Source of the DNA: Rhodospirillaceae bacterium
GTDB taxonomy: Bacteria > Pseudomonadota > Alphaproteobacteria > CACIAM-22H2
NCBI GenBank assembly: GCA_027490975.1
Contig: JAIXXA010000035.1
Span: forward strand, 9,164-73,163
Reading direction: 5' to 3'
Length of the DNA stretch: 64,000 bases
The position numbers and the translations under genes are program-made. Every line of letters starts with the position of its first letter. The stretch's first letter is position 1. Shown piece by piece: positions 27,043-33,327 of the stretch. Below the pieces are notes generated by a model. It saw nothing but the letters and a program-made list of their open reading frames with translations, was not told the DNA's origin and did not search any database.

Positions 27043-27347
27043 CGTTGTCAGGACTTGGGAACGCGAAAATGCCGCACCGCACCCGACGCATCGGTGCACG
27101 CGCGAACCTCGCCTTTCCTCTTGCGCAACTGCCTCATGGCAAGCGAGTGTAGCAAACCACGGTGCCGCCTGCACGAGGCTCGCGCGGGCTGTTTATACAC
27201 AAATGTTTTCAAGGGTTTGACAGAATATGCGACGCCCCTTCCTGTTCGTTCTTGTGGTTGTTGCGGCAGCCCTTGCCGCCGGGGTGTTGTTCCTGGCGCG
27301 CTGGGACATCCCAGCCCCGACCGCCCGAATCGAGAAGACGATCCCCA

Positions 27348-29183
27348 ATGACCGCCTGCCGCGCTGACCGCACCTTGCGTGCGTCGCTGATCGCTTTGCT
27401 GCTGGCCGCCGCTGCGGCGGCACCCGCTGTCGCCCAAAATCCGGGCTCGAACTTGCTGCGCCCGCCGCCGGTGCGCGCCGAACCGCCGCCGGCCGCAGCA
27501 CCGGCACCGGCGGACGAAACGTCCCCGCGCGCGGCACCGCAGCTGCAGGCACCGGCCGGGATCGAGGTCGAAGTCGCGCGCCCGCTCGACCCCGAGGCGA
27601 TCGGCCTTATCGATGCGGCGCGCGGCGGCTTTCCGCCCGATGCGTGGGCGGCGAGCGGGCGGGCCTTTGCCGAGCGCCTCGTGCGCGACCTGCCGGCCCC
27701 GCTGGCCTCGCAGCCCTTGCGCGAGTTGGCATGGCGCACGCTGGCCTCGACCGCCGCAGGCCCGCTTGTCGCAACGTCGCTTGCAGCACCGGGCACTGCC
27801 GCCCAACCTAATTTCGCGGGCTTGCGCGCGGCACGGCTGCGCGCCCTCGGCGACATCGAATCGGCGGCCGAGCTCGCCCGGCGCATTCCCGACCGCATGG
27901 CCGATCCCGCCCTTGCGCGCCTGCTGATCGACGCGTCGTTTCTGGCCCAAGCCGACGAGCGGGCTTGTGCGCTGGTGCGCGAAGCGCTTGGCCGCATGCG
28001 CGACGTGGCCCTGCAAAAGGCGCTGATGTTCTGCCAGGCCCTGGCCGGCGACGGCGACCGCGCACAGCTGGGTTTGGCGATGCTGCGCGACCAGGGTGCG
28101 CCCGAAGACCCCGCTTTCGTCACGCTGCTGCTTGCAGTCGGCGGCGACGGGCGCGGCGTGCGCATCGACACGCTGCGCAATGCCGATCCGCTGGCGCTTG
28201 CCATGCTGCGCGCCGCCAAGGTCGCCCCGCCCGCCGACAGCGTGCAGAGCAGCGACCCTGCCGTCCTCGCCGCTCTTGCGCGCGGCGATTGGGGCACGCC
28301 GGAGTTTCGCTTGGCCGCCGCCGAGCGCGCCGAAGCGTTCGGCGCCATGCCGGCGGGCGAACTTGCCGATTTCTACCGTGCCATTGAACTGACGGCCGCC
28401 CAGTCGGCCGATCCGGCGGCTTTTGCGCGCGGCGACGGCGGCCCGCGCGGGCGCGCGGCCTTGTTCAAAGCCGCCGACGCGGCCCCGGTCGGCCCGGCCC
28501 GCCTCACCGCGTTGCAGGCCTTGTGGAGCCATGGCCGCGAACGCGGCGGTTACGCCACCTTGGCGCGCGCGAGCGTTTCCCTGCTGGCGCAGACCCCGCC
28601 TTCGCCGGACTATCGCTTCGCCGCCGCAGATGCCGCACGCGCCCTGTTGATGGCGGGCGAGCGCGAGACGGCCGCCGGCTGGATCCGGCTTGTGCGCGCC
28701 GCCCAGATCGGCGGCGACGGGGCGGCCGCCAACGAGGCCGCGCGCATCTGGCTGCTCGCAACCTTGGCCGGCATCGAAACCGGCGAAGCGCGCAGTGCCG
28801 CACGCCTTGCCGCATGGCGCCAAGCGCTCGACGCCGGCGACGCGCGCGCGGCCCCCGTTCGCGCGGCGCTCGGCGTGGCCCTGCTGAGCGGCCTTGGGCA
28901 TTTGCCGGGCGGCGGCGCTGCCGTCGCTTTTCCGCAAGCCGCGCTCGAGCGCCAGACCGCAAGCTTGCCGCATCCGGCGCTGGTCACGGCACTCCACGAG
29001 GCCGGAATCGGCGGCAGGCCGGCCGAAAGCGCCTTGCTTGTCGTGCACATGCTCGGCGGCGACGGGGCTGCAGGCGCGCCCGTCTATGTGCTGCTGTCGG
29101 TGCTCGACGGCCTGCGCGCGGTCGGCCTCGAGGAGAATGCGCGCCTGCTGGCGCTCGAATCCGCGATCGCGTCGGGGCTTTAG
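27348..29183 (+). CDS. hypothetical secreted Ala-rich protein (611 aa)
   Basis: Internal start MTACRADRTLRASLIALLLAAAAAAPAVAQ gives a signal peptide. Ala/Leu-rich, helical-repeat-like. Conserved position between aroK and xerD. Confidence 0.5.
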   Translation: MTACRADRTLRASLIALLLAAAAAAPAVAQNPGSNLLRPPPVRAEPPPAAAPAPADETSPRAAPQLQAPAGIEVEVARPLDPEAIGLIDAARGGFPPDAWAASGRAFAERLVRDLPAPLASQPLRELAWRTLASTAAGPLVATSLAAPGTAAQPNFAGLRAARLRALGDIESAAELARRIPDRMADPALARLLIDASFLAQADERACALVREALGRMRDVALQKALMFCQALAGDGDRAQLGLAMLRDQGAPEDPAFVTLLLAVGGDGRGVRIDTLRNADPLALAMLRAAKVAPPADSVQSSDPAVLAALARGDWGTPEFRLAAAERAEAFGAMPAGELADFYRAIELTAAQSADPAAFARGDGGPRGRAALFKAADAAPVGPARLTALQALWSHGRERGGYATLARASVSLLAQTPPSPDYRFAAADAARALLMAGERETAAGWIRLVRAAQIGGDGAAANEAARIWLLATLAGIETGEARSAARLAAWRQALDAGDARAAPVRAALGVALLSGLGHLPGGGAAVAFPQAALERQTASLPHPALVTALHEAGIGGRPAESALLVVHMLGGDGAAGAPVYVLLSVLDGLRAVGLEENARLLALESAIASGL

Positions 29184-29194
29184 GCGCTCGGGCG

Positions 29195-30133
29195 ATGGCG
29201 CGCGGCAGGCCGCCCGCACCCAAGCCCGATTTGTCGCGCCACGCGACGCTGTTTCTCGAGATGATGCGCGCCGAGCGCAACGCCTCGGCGCATACCGAGC
29301 GCGCCTATTCGGGCGATCTTGCCGACTACGAAGCCTTTCTCGCCGCGCGCGGCAGCAGCGTGCTCGCATGCGACGCGGCCCTGGCGCGCGCCTACATGGC
29401 CAAGCTTGCCGCCCGCGCATTGAGCCCGCGCAGTGCCGCACGCAGGCTTTCCGCGATGCGCCAGTTGCATCGTTTTCTGCTGGCCGAAAACCATCGCGCC
29501 GACGATCCGCTGACGAGCCTCGAGGCCCCGCGCATCGGCCGACCGCTGCCGAAGATCCTGGCCGAAGACGAAGTCGCCCGTCTCATCGAAGCCGCGCGGC
29601 GCCATGCCGCCAAAGACGGCGGGCGGCTCGTGTGTTTCCTCGAAGTGCTCTATTCGAGCGGCCTGCGCGTGTCGGAATTGGCCGGGCTCAAATTGTCGGC
29701 GCTCGCGCGCGACGGCTCGTTCCTGATCGTGCGCGGCAAGGGCGACAAAGAGCGCCTGATCCCGCTTGCCGCCCCCGCCCTTGCCGCGATCGCGGCGTGG
29801 CGGCAGGGGCGCGACCGGCACAGCCCCAAAGCCGCCCGATCGCCGTATCTTTTCCCGAGCGGGGCCGCAGCCGGGCACCTCACGCCCGCGCGCATTGCCC
29901 AGTTGCTGAAGGCGCTGGCGCCGAAAGCCGGCATCGCCCCGCAGCGCCTGTCGCCGCACGTGCTGCGGCATGCGTTTGCCAGCCACCTCGTCGATCGCGG
30001 GGCCGATCTGCGCGCGGTCCAGCAGATGCTCGGCCATGCCGACATCGCCACAACGCAGATCTACACGCATGTCGGCGGCGAGCGCCTGAAACAGGTCGTG
30101 GCCAAGCACCATCCGCTGGCGCGCCGACGCTAA
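29195..30133 (+). CDS. xerD: site-specific tyrosine recombinase XerD
   Basis: C-terminal catalytic motifs (HVLRHAFASHL, ...LGHADIATTQIYTHV). Adjacent to aroKB as in many alphaproteobacteria. Confidence 0.85.
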   Translation: MARGRPPAPKPDLSRHATLFLEMMRAERNASAHTERAYSGDLADYEAFLAARGSSVLACDAALARAYMAKLAARALSPRSAARRLSAMRQLHRFLLAENHRADDPLTSLEAPRIGRPLPKILAEDEVARLIEAARRHAAKDGGRLVCFLEVLYSSGLRVSELAGLKLSALARDGSFLIVRGKGDKERLIPLAAPALAAIAAWRQGRDRHSPKAARSPYLFPSGAAAGHLTPARIAQLLKALAPKAGIAPQRLSPHVLRHAFASHLVDRGADLRAVQQMLGHADIATTQIYTHVGGERLKQVVAKHHPLARRR

Positions 30134-30253
30134 AAGAGGGTGCGCTTCGCACCCAGAACGGGCGTCTTGCGCTTGTAACGCGCAAATTCAAAGGTTACAC
30201 CAGCAAGACGAACATTTTGCCGGAGTCGCCCGGCGCTGTAAGGAATCCTGCCG

Positions 30254-32371
30254 ATGGCTGCCAAAAAGAAGCCCGCCAAGAAATCCCCCGCGCCTAAACC
30301 CGTTGGGAAAAAGCCGGTCGCCAAGCCGGCAAACGGCAAAAAAGCGACGCAAAAGAAGCCACTTGCGGCCAAAAAGCCGACGCCGGCCAAGAAGCCCGTG
30401 GCGGCCAAGAAGCCCGCACCGCCCGCCAAAAAGGCGCCGGCCGCCAAAAAACTGGCGCCCGCCCCCAAAAAACCGGCGCTTGCGGCCAAGAAACCGGCCC
30501 CGGTGGCCAAAAAGCCGGCCGCCGCGCTGAAATCGCCGCCGAAAACGCCGGCAAAGCCGGCCGCAAAGCCGACCGCAAAGCCGGGGGCGAAGTCGGCAGT
30601 TGCCGTCCCAACGCCGGCCCCCGCAAAATCACCCCCGGCCAAACCGGCCGCGGCAGCCCCGGCGGCCAAATCGGCGCCGGCCAAGGCCCCGCCGGCCAAG
30701 CCCGTCGCCGTTGCCCCGCCGCCGCCGCCCAAACTGCCGGTGAAGGGCCCCGGCGGCACCGTGCTGCCCGACGACGGCGTGAAGCTCGACGCCAAGGTGC
30801 TGCCGGCCCAGCTCGCGGTTCTGACGCCAGAAGCGATCGCCTTCGTGGTCGAACTCGAGCGCAAATTCGGCGCGCGCCGCCGCGAACTTTTGGCCGCGCG
30901 CACGGCCCGCCAGGCGCGCCTCGATGCCGGCGAAAAACCCGATTTTTCGCCGATGACGCGCAGCGTGCGCGAAGGCGACTGGACGGTTGCCCCGCTGCCC
31001 AAAGACATCTTGGACCGCCGCGTCGAAATCACCGGCCCCGTCGACCGCAAGATGGTGATCAACGCGCTGAACAGCGGCGCCAACGTGTTCATGGCCGATT
31101 TCGAGGATGCCTCGGCGCCGTCCTGGAACAATCTCGTCGACGGCCAGATCAATCTGCGCGACGCGATCGCCGGCACCATCGCCTACAGCGATGCGGCATC
31201 GGGCAAAAGCTACAAGCTCAACCCCAAACACGCGGTGCTGTTCGTGCGCCCGCGCGGGCTTGCCCTGCCCGAGAAGCATCTGCTGGTCGACGGCCAGCCG
31301 ATGGCGGGCGCCTTCTTCGATTTCGGTTTCTATTTCTTCCACAACGCCAAAGCGCTGCTCAAAAACGGCTCGGGCCCGTATTTCTACCTGCCCAAGCTCG
31401 AAAGCCATCTCGAGGCGCGGCTGTGGAACGACATTTTTGTGCATTCGCAGACAGCACTCGGCATCAAGACCGGCTCGATCAAGGCGACGGTGCTGATCGA
31501 AACGATCCTCGCCGCCTTCGAGATGGACGAAATCCTCTACGAACTGCGCGAGCATTCGGCCGGGCTCAATTGCGGGCGCTGGGACTACATCTTCAGCTTC
31601 ATCAAGAAATTCGCAACGCGCCCCGCCTGCCTGATGCCCGATCGCGGCCAAGTCACGATGGTGTCGCATTTCATGCGCGCCTACAGCCAGCTCGCGATCA
31701 AGACCTGCCACAAGCGCAACGTGCACGCGATGGGCGGCATGGCCGCACAGATCCCGATCAAAGACGACGCGGCCGCCAACGCGGCCGCCATGGACAAGGT
31801 GCGCGCCGACAAGGAGCGCGAAGCCGCCGACGGCCACGACGGCACGTGGGTGGCGCATCCGGGCCTCGTGGCGATCGCCAAGGCCGCCTTCGACGACAAG
31901 ATGAAAGACGCCAACCAGATCGCGCGCAAACGCCAGGACGTGCACGTGGCGGCGGCCGACCTGCTGCAGGTTCCGGCGGGAACGGCGACCGAAGCGGGCC
32001 TGCGCCAGAACTGTGCGGTCGGCATCGGCTACCTCGAAGCCTGGCTGCGCGGCCAGGGCTGCGTGCCGCTGTACAACCTGATGGAAGACGCCGCCACCGC
32101 CGAAATCAGCCGCGCGCAGGTGTGGCAGCAGCTGCACCACGAAGCGCATCTCGACGACGGGCGTGCGGTCGAAAAACCCTTCGTGCGCAAGATCGTCGAC
32201 GAGGAGCTCGAGAAGCTCAAGAAGAGCGTGGGCGCCGAGCGCTACGCCAAGGGCCGCTACAAAGAGGCGGCCAAGATGTTCCTCGAACTCGTGGAAGCCG
32301 AAACCTTCCCCGAATTCCTGACGCTCCCCGCCTACGACTGGCTCGTCGCCAACGAAGCCAAGCTCGGCTAA
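30254..32371 (+). CDS. aceB: malate synthase A with about 170-aa N-terminal Lys/Ala/Pro-rich histone-H1/AlgP-like repeat extension
   Basis: Residues from about 170 align end-to-end with E. coli AceB (EITGPVDRKMVINALNSGANVFMADFEDA, GLNCGRWDYIFS, CVPLYNLMEDAATAEISR). The N-terminus is (A/P)AKKP repeats with no stop or Met before the catalytic core. AAGGAA SD 9 nt upstream of the 30254 ATG. Confidence 0.85.
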   Translation: MAAKKKPAKKSPAPKPVGKKPVAKPANGKKATQKKPLAAKKPTPAKKPVAAKKPAPPAKKAPAAKKLAPAPKKPALAAKKPAPVAKKPAAALKSPPKTPAKPAAKPTAKPGAKSAVAVPTPAPAKSPPAKPAAAAPAAKSAPAKAPPAKPVAVAPPPPPKLPVKGPGGTVLPDDGVKLDAKVLPAQLAVLTPEAIAFVVELERKFGARRRELLAARTARQARLDAGEKPDFSPMTRSVREGDWTVAPLPKDILDRRVEITGPVDRKMVINALNSGANVFMADFEDASAPSWNNLVDGQINLRDAIAGTIAYSDAASGKSYKLNPKHAVLFVRPRGLALPEKHLLVDGQPMAGAFFDFGFYFFHNAKALLKNGSGPYFYLPKLESHLEARLWNDIFVHSQTALGIKTGSIKATVLIETILAAFEMDEILYELREHSAGLNCGRWDYIFSFIKKFATRPACLMPDRGQVTMVSHFMRAYSQLAIKTCHKRNVHAMGGMAAQIPIKDDAAANAAAMDKVRADKEREAADGHDGTWVAHPGLVAIAKAAFDDKMKDANQIARKRQDVHVAAADLLQVPAGTATEAGLRQNCAVGIGYLEAWLRGQGCVPLYNLMEDAATAEISRAQVWQQLHHEAHLDDGRAVEKPFVRKIVDEELEKLKKSVGAERYAKGRYKEAAKMFLELVEAETFPEFLTLPAYDWLVANEAKLG
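30263..30760 (+). repeat. imperfect tandem repeat of gccaagaagccggc(c)-type units encoding the KAP-rich tract
   Basis: Direct reading of 30263-30760 shows repeated gccaagaagcccg/gccaaaaagccggc units. Confidence 0.7.
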
Positions 32372-32382
32372 GGGCGCAAGCC

Positions 32383-33327
32383 ATGCCCAATTCGATTCCG
32401 CTGCGCCTCAACCGCACCGAGCTTGCAGTACCTGCAAGCCGCCCCGAACTTTTCGCCAAGGCGGCACGCTCGGGTGCCGACGTCGTGTTTCTCGATCTCG
32501 AAGACGCGGTCGCCCCGTCCGACAAGGTCAAGGCCCGCAAGAACGCGATCGAAGCGCTCAACGACATCGACTGGGCGGCCGTCGGCAAAACGATTTCGGT
32601 GCGCGTCAACGGGGCCGATACCGAATGGATGTATCGCGACCTCGTCGATCTCGTCGAAAAGGCCGGCAATCGCCTCGATCTCCTGATGCTGCCCAAAGTG
32701 AACCGCGTCGAAGACGTGCTCGCGGTCGACATGTGGCTCACGCAGATCGAGCGCGCCAGAAAGATCGAGCGGCGTATCGGGCTCGAACTTCTGATCGAAA
32801 CCGCCCAAGGCCTTGCGAACGTCGAGGCGATCGCAAGTGCCGCCCCGCGCGTCGAATCGCTGATTTTCGGCGTGGGCGACTTTGCCGCCTCGACCGGCAT
32901 GCGCACGACCAATATCGGCGGGCTGTCGGCGCAATATGCCGTGGACGGCAAACAGGCCGACATCTGGCACTACGCGCTCGCGCGCATCGTGGTGGCCGCG
33001 CGTGCCGCGGGCAAACGGCCGGTCGACGGGCCATATGCGGATTTCAACGATCCGCTCGGCATGAAGGAATCGGCGCTTCGGGCGGCGGCATTGGGCTGCG
33101 AGGGGAAGATGATGATCCATCCTTCGCAGATCGCCACGGTCAACGACGTGTTCACGCCCGACCCGATGGAGGTCGAGCGCGCGCGCGCGATTCTGCTCGC
33201 CATGGACGCCGCCGCCGACGAGGGCCAGGGTGCAGCCACCTTCGAGGGCCGCTTGATCGACATCGCCTCGATCCGCCAAGCGCGCGCGATCGTGGCCAAA
33301 CACGGGCAGATTCGCGGCCACGACTGA
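32383..33327 (+). CDS. mcl: HpcH/CitE-family CoA-ester lyase, most similar to L-malyl-CoA/beta-methylmalyl-CoA lyase
   Basis: Near-colinear similarity to Rhodobacter Mcl1 (DVVFLDLEDAVAP, PKV..., GKMMIHPSQIA...VFTP). 314 aa. Confidence 0.75.
   Translation: MPNSIPLRLNRTELAVPASRPELFAKAARSGADVVFLDLEDAVAPSDKVKARKNAIEALNDIDWAAVGKTISVRVNGADTEWMYRDLVDLVEKAGNRLDLLMLPKVNRVEDVLAVDMWLTQIERARKIERRIGLELLIETAQGLANVEAIASAAPRVESLIFGVGDFAASTGMRTTNIGGLSAQYAVDGKQADIWHYALARIVVAARAAGKRPVDGPYADFNDPLGMKESALRAAALGCEGKMMIHPSQIATVNDVFTPDPMEVERARAILLAMDAAADEGQGAATFEGRLIDIASIRQARAIVAKHGQIRGHD

Follow-up and report, generated by a model that had tools for sequence, protein, structure and literature searches.

We analyzed a stretch of 64,000 nucleotides (nt) from Rhodospirillaceae bacterium (GenBank assembly GCA_027490975.1, contig JAIXXA010000035.1), referred to in full as the window, with regard to a single open reading frame (ORF) on its plus strand at 30254–32371. 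This ORF starts with ATG, terminates with a stop codon at 32369–32371 and encodes a 705-residue protein (75.6 kDa, isoelectric point (pI) of 9.8; overall GC content at third codon positions (GC3) of 0.84), in which a lysine-rich N-terminal tail precedes a malate synthase A (MSA) core. A Shine-Dalgarno (SD) sequence, AAGGA, was read at 30240–30244 (+), with a spacing of 9 nt to the ATG and an anti-SD duplex energy of -6.1 kcal/mol, and an equivalent AAGGA, GAGGA or AGGGA site was present in 12 of 12 orthologous loci and in 3 further loci. An earlier note on this DNA had proposed one ORF opening at this ATG behind an SD site, and this proposal was borne out. Between tail and core we found neither a stop codon nor an in-frame ATG, as the note had stated; its additional statement that this region has no obvious alternative start did not hold, as in-frame GTG codons occur at the junction at 30740, 30761, 30779 and 30797.

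The core matched TIGR01344 with a score of 829.6 bits (cutoff 594.5), residues 189–697 covering model positions 1–510 of 511, and the malate synthase G models gave scores far under their own cutoffs. Three Pfam domains were present in order, with no rearrangement relative to solved MSA structures: the N-terminal domain MS_N (residues 188–236, 30815–30961, +; PF20656, E = 1.6e-15), the TIM barrel (residues 328–573, 31235–31972, +; PF01274, E = 6.5e-110), which includes R332, E416 and D444, and the C-terminal domain MS_C (residues 578–695, 31985–32338, +; PF20659, E = 1.4e-39), which includes D612. By structure alignment, residues 188–696 corresponded to residues 22–530 of the E. coli enzyme (PDB 3cuz), and residues 176–696 to residues 7–527 of the B. 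anthracis enzyme (PDB 3cux). The core was 52% identical to E. coli AceB; R332, E416, D444 and D612 aligned with AceB R166, E250, D278 and D447 and were invariant in 36 homologues. We take R166 to be the active-site Arg, E250 and D278 the Mg-binding residues, and D447 the catalytic base. These family, structural and alignment data indicate that the core is a complete and probably catalytically intact malate synthase A (EC 2.3.3.9). Compared with known MSAs (AceB, TIGR01344, 3cuz and 3cux), the core is full-length and colinear over residues ~176–697, and the earlier note had rightly recognized its colinearity with AceB. The difference lies at the N-terminus: solved and textbook MSAs start no more than ~20 residues before the first helix, whereas the window protein has ~160 extra N-terminal residues that are predicted to be disordered, as well as a basic overall pI.

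Composition of the tail and its likeness to known lysine-rich domains

The tail of ~160 amino acids (aa) contains 41 Lys and no Arg, acidic or aromatic residues, which gives a net charge of about +40. Over residues 1–188, Ala (52), Pro (46) and Lys (44) together account for 142 of 188 positions, Arg is again missing, the first acidic residue is D172, and the pI is 11. The tail can be divided into two parts followed by a junction. Part 1 (residues 1–87, 30254–30514, +) is Lys-dense; it begins with MAAKKKPAKK and has 14 KK(K) clusters with a period of 5–7 residues. Part 2 (residues 88–154, 30515–30715, +) is rich in Ala and Pro and consists of sparser single-Lys units (AKP, AKS and PAK); among close relatives, no other stretch evolves faster or varies more in length. 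At the boundary between tail and core, a polyproline run, PPPPP, was read from the sequence (residues 155–159, 30716–30730, +). A run of five or six Pro is kept in most members of the clade with K-only tails described below, six being found in most close relatives; P0009 has no pure run ('PAPAAPAPKLP'). The run is followed by a junction motif, KLPVKGPGGTVLPDDG (residues 160–175, 30731–30778, +), that only tailed orthologues have; it is predicted to be ordered and to lie against the core. Within it, VKGPGGT[VMI]LP was conserved in 12 of 12 loci.

An AlphaFold2 model built with 36 aligned homologues placed the transition from tail to core in the same area. For residues 1–143 the predicted local distance difference test score (pLDDT) was below 50 (35–40 in part 1) and secondary structure was missing; the score rose over residues ~144–160 and reached at least 90 from residue ~161, with most of the core scoring 85–98. 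According to this model the tail is intrinsically disordered. Of the 170-aa Lys-Ala-Pro repeat domain described in the earlier note, the Lys/Ala/Pro tail was thus confirmed, with predicted disorder over ~160 aa.

The tail is less regular than had been described. Instead of about 35 AKKP/AAKKPA-type repeats, we counted 27 lysine clusters, the 14 KK(K) clusters coming first and 13 single Lys after them, with periods of 4–12 residues overall. Exact units were few (AKKP five times, KPAA three times and PAKKA once), and a regular tandem array of 4–5 residues was absent. Similarly, the DNA that encodes the tail does contain tandem arrays; these are imperfect (Tandem Repeats Finder: 71–90% matches; periods of 12, 15, 18, 21 and 30 nt) and lie within 30366–30730, a shorter interval than the 30263–30760 given before. 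The longest homopolymer is A6, and ribosome slippage on poly-lysine/poly(A) was ruled out on this account. A Sec/Tat export signal was not recognizable in the sequence, where Lys or Pro recurs every few residues up to residue 160 and where hydrophobic stretches and aromatic residues are missing.

In six frames of the window, the tail was the sole stretch to reach 70% K/A/P and 15% K over a length of 40 aa. Related loci, sampled in their flanks for 739 kb, likewise contained essentially no other segment rich in K/A/P. The idea that K/A/P tails are a proteome-wide habit of the lineage was therefore rejected for the DNA sampled.

The earlier note compared the tail with histone H1 and AlgP. The tail alone gave no Pfam or NCBIfam match even at E <= 10, and a phmmer search with it gave no hits, all 8000 candidates that shared words with it dropping out under composition-bias correction. 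Among the orthologues, P0018 had one precomputed match to PF07382 (HC2). With AlgP/H1-type domains the tail shares dominance of K/A/P, positive charge and predicted disorder, but it shows neither a regular repeat array nor profile homology. We therefore do not count it as a member of the histone H1/AlgP family; the likeness is one of composition. AlgP localizes to polyphosphate granules and needs its 154-aa KPAA domain to space them; AlgP also binds DNA and has a net charge of +55, and PhaF carries a domain homologous to it and has a charge of +35 (PMC9239181). The window tail is thus similar to these Pseudomonas proteins in length (154 aa in AlgP), Lys/Ala/Pro composition, predicted disorder and charge (about +40 versus +55 and +35; PMC9239181). 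In contrast, AlgP has regular repeats (25 perfect KPAA) at the C-terminus of a small helical protein, whereas the window tail is N-terminal and irregular and is attached to a 540-aa metabolic enzyme.

A second comparison is provided by PAKKA-type tails. Those of Hlp/HU and Ku contact DNA, and their repeated evolution has been proposed (PMC3553676), while a PAKKA motif of PhaM tethers polyhydroxybutyrate (PHB) granules to the nucleoid (PMC11352279). The window tail resembles those of Hlp/HU and Ku (actinobacteria and Deinococcus) and PhaM (Ralstonia) in being a fast-evolving terminal Lys/Ala/Pro extension that is variable in length and missing in some relatives. However, the hosts of these extensions already act on DNA or on a storage granule, whereas the host in the window is a soluble enzyme of central carbon metabolism with no known role involving nucleic acids.

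We also scanned metagenomes for genes starting with MAAKKKPAKK, which yielded 120 loci. About 8 of these were tailed malate synthases, and most others coded for small basic or standalone Lys-rich proteins. Short basic tags with this start (10–36 aa) were found on the pyruvate dehydrogenase E1-alpha subunit, S-adenosylhomocysteine hydrolase, a RuBisCO-like protein, a class II aldolase and a glyoxalase-fold protein (L129, L130, L156, L198, L203 and L097, including DksA). Thus, basic N-terminal tags on enzymes are not unique to malate synthase. The decapeptide is the same in these proteins and in the window; however, the enzyme tags are short, and only one DksA had a basic tail of ~130 aa. In this sample of 120 loci, a tail of at least 100 aa that is present clade-wide on an enzyme was observed only for malate synthase. 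The statement that Lys-Ala-Pro domains normally occur in standalone nucleoid-associated proteins was accordingly too narrow, as they are also appended to Ku, HU/Hlp, PhaF and PhaM (PMC3553676, PMC9239181, PMC11352279), to DksA and, in short form, to enzymes. Its companion, that an H1/AlgP-like tail is genuinely fused in frame to malate synthase A and that this is unusual, was upheld. A literature search found no description of a lysine-rich, histone-H1-like or N-terminal extension on malate synthase, and the combination appears to be undescribed, each of its two components being individually well known.

Translation, selection and inheritance of the tail

Because the window has a GC content of 67% and contains many long spurious ORFs, a bare open frame is weak evidence of translation, and we therefore used comparative evidence. 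The MAAKKKPAKK start together with an SD site was found in 15 independently assembled loci, and the decapeptide was conserved down to ~80% identity of the core. In six loci whose core proteins were 94–98% identical, the tail DNA was only 71–85% identical, but every pairwise indel was a multiple of 3 (3, 9, 12, 15, 24 and 27 nt), a regularity to which the repeat periods themselves contribute. Third codon positions of the tail carried 2–4 times as many substitutions as either of the other two. For example, between the window and locus L081, the numbers of substitutions at the three positions were 23, 17 and 40 per 154 codons in the tail and 14, 3 and 92 per 540 codons in the core; the non-synonymous rate in the tail was ~8-fold above that in the core. 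The excess at third positions argues that the tail is under purifying selection in this frame. Besides, GC3 of the tail was highest in this frame (0.77 versus 0.68 and 0.65), and its codon usage was similar to that of neighboring host genes.

The amino acid composition was also retained. Among 17 orthologous tails (2351 residues), Lys made up 22–33% of each, and in total we found 4 Glu, no Asp, 3 Arg, and no aromatic residues, His or Cys. The scarcity of acidic residues is notable because a change from Lys to Glu takes a single transition. As these comparisons show, selection is acting to keep the frame, the start site and the charge composition of the tail. Its precise sequence and its length, in contrast, drift as repeats are gained and lost in frame.

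A different reading of the locus is that translation begins only within the ORF, at the GTG at 30761 (or that at 30740). The 507 nt before it would then form a leader that is rich in repeats, open by chance and not translated, and the protein would be an ordinary 536-aa MSA. The codon for V170 (30761–30763, +) is indeed a possible secondary start, with AAGGG at 30743–30747, 13 nt upstream (duplex -5.0 kcal/mol). Across 12 loci this codon was GTG in 8, ATG in 2 and Ile in 2. In a near-identical genome, the NCBI annotation begins the protein P0010 ('MLPDDG...', 536 aa) at the V170 position, and for P0010, P0020 and P0021 the NCBI starts fall at V170 or at the neighboring V163 codon. Spurious long ORFs, which are common at 67% GC, would fit this reading as well. 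Nevertheless, we consider it very improbable. An untranslated leader does not account for the tail indels, all of them multiples of 3, and the excess of third-position substitutions in the tail frame, nor for the retention in 15 loci of an ATG and SD site that open MAAKKKPAKK, nor for the extreme and conserved composition with almost no acidic residues. In addition, the codon is Ile in 2 of the 12 loci, 13 nt is long for SD spacing, and distant relatives with tails of mixed Lys and Arg have no equivalent internal start. Judged against the comparative evidence for translation of the tail, the internal start cannot be the source of the sole product; a tail-less isoform made from GTG 30761 may exist alongside the full-length form.

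Four database proteins of the clade, P0010, P0020, P0021 and P0011 (536–544 aa), appear to be tail-less. In all four cases, however, a full tail, its ATG and an SD site are encoded upstream in frame. These records (three from NCBI and one from JGI) take a GTG or ATG inside the ORF as the start, and ~400–590 bp that code for the tail are left as 'intergenic'; the unannotated stretches are L081 5518–6000, L207 ~1138–1500, L208 ~1147–1500 and L209 ~1024–1500. The JGI record (L209) additionally has a spurious 169-aa ORF called antisense to the tail (L209 954–1463). Annotation pipelines thus disagree on this gene, and surveys of disorder or enzyme architecture miss such proteins.

The earlier note had also considered that the fusion might be an assembly artefact, or that it might join a separate histone-like gene to aceB in a phase-variable manner. 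Such origins are conceivable for DNA that is imperfectly tandem-repetitive and whose repeat number varies among strains. Yet the same continuous ORF, with its conserved start and SD site, was present in 15 contigs that different projects had assembled independently, among them contigs of 0.37–1.87 Mb, and no stop or frameshift was found in the tail at any locus compared. A phase-variable locus is not indicated either: indels in the six strains were all multiples of 3, homopolymers did not exceed A6, and all loci were in frame. The probability left to an assembly or sequencing artefact or to phase variation is close to nil, and as far as sequence comparison goes, both artefact and on/off switching are refuted. 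What the alignments indicate to be real is the variation in repeat number among strains that the note had suggested looking for, with every indel in frame.

Comparison with orthologous malate synthases, likewise suggested there, revealed that the extension recurs. In a homologue survey comprising the 120 best clusters, about 55 had a basic tail. In a neighbor-joining tree of the cores, proteins with K-only, Pro-rich tails (108–197 aa before the KGPGG junction motif) formed one clade together with the window protein. Neighboring clades had mixed Lys and Arg tails of 34–136 aa that begin with MAARKK, down to ~72% core identity, and relatives of Reyranella/Stellaceae type as well as those from other phyla were tail-less, with 15–25 ordinary residues before the core. 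The closest named relatives are metagenome-assembled genomes (MAGs) labeled Telmatospirillum sp. and Tagaea sp. (NCBI taxonomy: Rhodospirillales). This distribution indicates that the tail has been passed down within a clade of uncultured, freshwater-type alphaproteobacteria similar to Rhodospirillales. One MAG labeled 'Asaia bogorensis' (L001, CAMDLT010000011.1) contains a tailed malate synthase that is 86% identical to that of the window and groups with the Tagaea/Telmatospirillum-like clade; its label looks doubtful.

Possible role of the tail

On balance, we think that the protein is probably an intact malate synthase A whose translated, clade-inherited and selected polycationic tail tethers it to a polyanion through non-specific electrostatic contacts. 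By analogy with the Lys-rich domains discussed above, we infer polyanion localization as the most reasonable role, in line with what the earlier note had suggested. Within the cell, the polyanion on which the tail would hold malate synthase could be, for instance, nucleoid DNA, RNA/ribosomes or polyphosphate granules, and the tail might provide a bridge to PHB granules. The PPPPP run and the conserved, ordered KLPVKGPGGT motif connect the tail to the enzyme core. Tethering in this manner would set the place, or the local concentration, of the condensation of glyoxylate and acetyl-CoA to malate, and the location or stability of the enzyme might respond to polyphosphate or to lysine acylation. 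If so, a selected tail on a soluble central-carbon enzyme across a clade suggests that in some bacteria a step of the glyoxylate shunt is positioned on a polyanionic scaffold, which would bear on the spatial organization of the bacterial cytoplasm and metabolism.

Several points weigh against this interpretation. The 75-kDa product is predicted from sequence comparison, and indels in multiples of 3 are partly to be expected where the repeats in the DNA have such periods themselves. The NCBI annotation favors the internal start, which is a GTG or an ATG in 10 of the 12 loci. The tail has no curated-family profile, and the analogy with AlgP-type domains is compositional only. The data are compatible with DNA, RNA, polyphosphate, a membrane or no partner at all for the tail. 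Finally, core net charge differed between tailed proteins (mean about +1 to +2) and tail-less ones (-6.8) in the homologue set (P0001–P0120), a difference that is confounded by phylogeny.

The same charges bear on another candidate role, in which the tail would balance an unusually acidic core. As the tailed cores are not acidic, the tail does not serve as charge compensation, and the whole protein is basic. This candidate was ruled out: tailed cores are near neutral and the tail-less ones more acidic.

It could also be argued that the tail, although translated, does nothing specific and represents a tolerated, slippage-driven expansion of low complexity (constructive neutral drift) with at most a generic effect on solubility, or as an 'entropic bristle'. 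The ~8-fold elevated non-synonymous rate, the range of lengths within the clade (108–197 aa) produced by repeat-unit indels, the missing match to any family profile, and the short basic MAAKKKPAKK tags on many unrelated proteins all agree with such drift. On the other hand, drift would not be expected to leave a tail across the whole clade, with a Lys and Arg form in neighboring clades to ~72% core identity, or a charge composition so strict that only 4 of 2351 residues are acidic although Lys to Glu is one step. The codon-position bias points to purifying selection, and in the DNA sampled such tails do not recur across the proteome. We regard neutral expansion as unlikely, while giving it some weight.

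Another possibility is that the tail mainly controls the amount of enzyme and not its place, either through a polyproline stall that depends on elongation factor P (EF-P) or through polyphosphate-stimulated proteolysis of a basic substrate in starvation. Polyproline runs stall ribosomes unless EF-P is present, and basic proteins are degraded by Lon in a polyphosphate-dependent manner. The conserved PPPPP(P) at the junction (30716–30730) is consistent with the first route, and expression of malate synthase may depend on EF-P through this run. With regard to the second, a strongly basic tail would be expected to bind polyphosphate by analogy with AlgP (PMC9239181). However, some clade members, such as P0009, have no pure polyproline, and a stall at five Pro needs no 150 extra Lys, Ala and Pro residues. 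Control of enzyme amount as the principal role seems to us rather improbable.

A more elaborate version of the tethering model would make the tail a charge-switchable address label that parks the enzyme on the nucleoid or on polyphosphate/PHB granules, with its ~40 Lys neutralized by acylation at high acetyl-CoA or acetyl-phosphate, or competed off by polyphosphate in starvation. We offer this as speculation with a small chance of being correct. If true, the location of malate synthase, and hence its activity, would report the acetyl and phosphate status of the cell, and this would be a bacterial case of central carbon metabolism that is spatially controlled by a histone-like tail.

Neighboring genes and the upstream region

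Close loci shared the gene order aroK-aroB, a 46-aa ORF, a ~610-aa unknown protein, xerD, malate synthase, (sometimes DUF1223), a citE-like lyase, accA, meaB and rpmB. Upstream of xerD, the window contains a 673-aa ORF (27162–29183, +) with a signal-peptide-like N-terminus and no Pfam match. Its counterparts of ~590–616 aa, also with no Pfam matches, were found at the same position in all close loci, after the conserved 46-aa ORF.

Downstream, a gene for a C-C lyase of the CitE/HpcH family (32383–33327, +) begins 11 nt past the malate synthase stop codon and is syntenic in most related loci. Its scores fell well short of all NCBIfam equivalog cutoffs, among them those of RipC (183 versus 375), citE (151 versus 443) and malyl-CoA lyase (95 versus 500). 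A role on malyl-CoA or a related CoA-ester next to malate synthase is plausible.

In the region 30000–30900, a promoter and terminator scan detected no sigma-70-like promoter, and a search of Rfam gave no credible RNA family (one chance miRNA match, E = 0.025). Between xerD and the malate synthase start, we observed an imperfect 26-nt inverted repeat (CGTCTTGCGCTTGTAAC ... GTTACACCAGCAAGACG) at 30154–30219, with the core TTGCGC-N7-GCGCAA at 30167–30185. The RNA fold z-score of this region was only -2.15, and it had no Rfam match. The repeat was near-identical in the 8 closest loci and absent from Tagaea-type loci, and it could be an operator or a hairpin in the 5' untranslated region.

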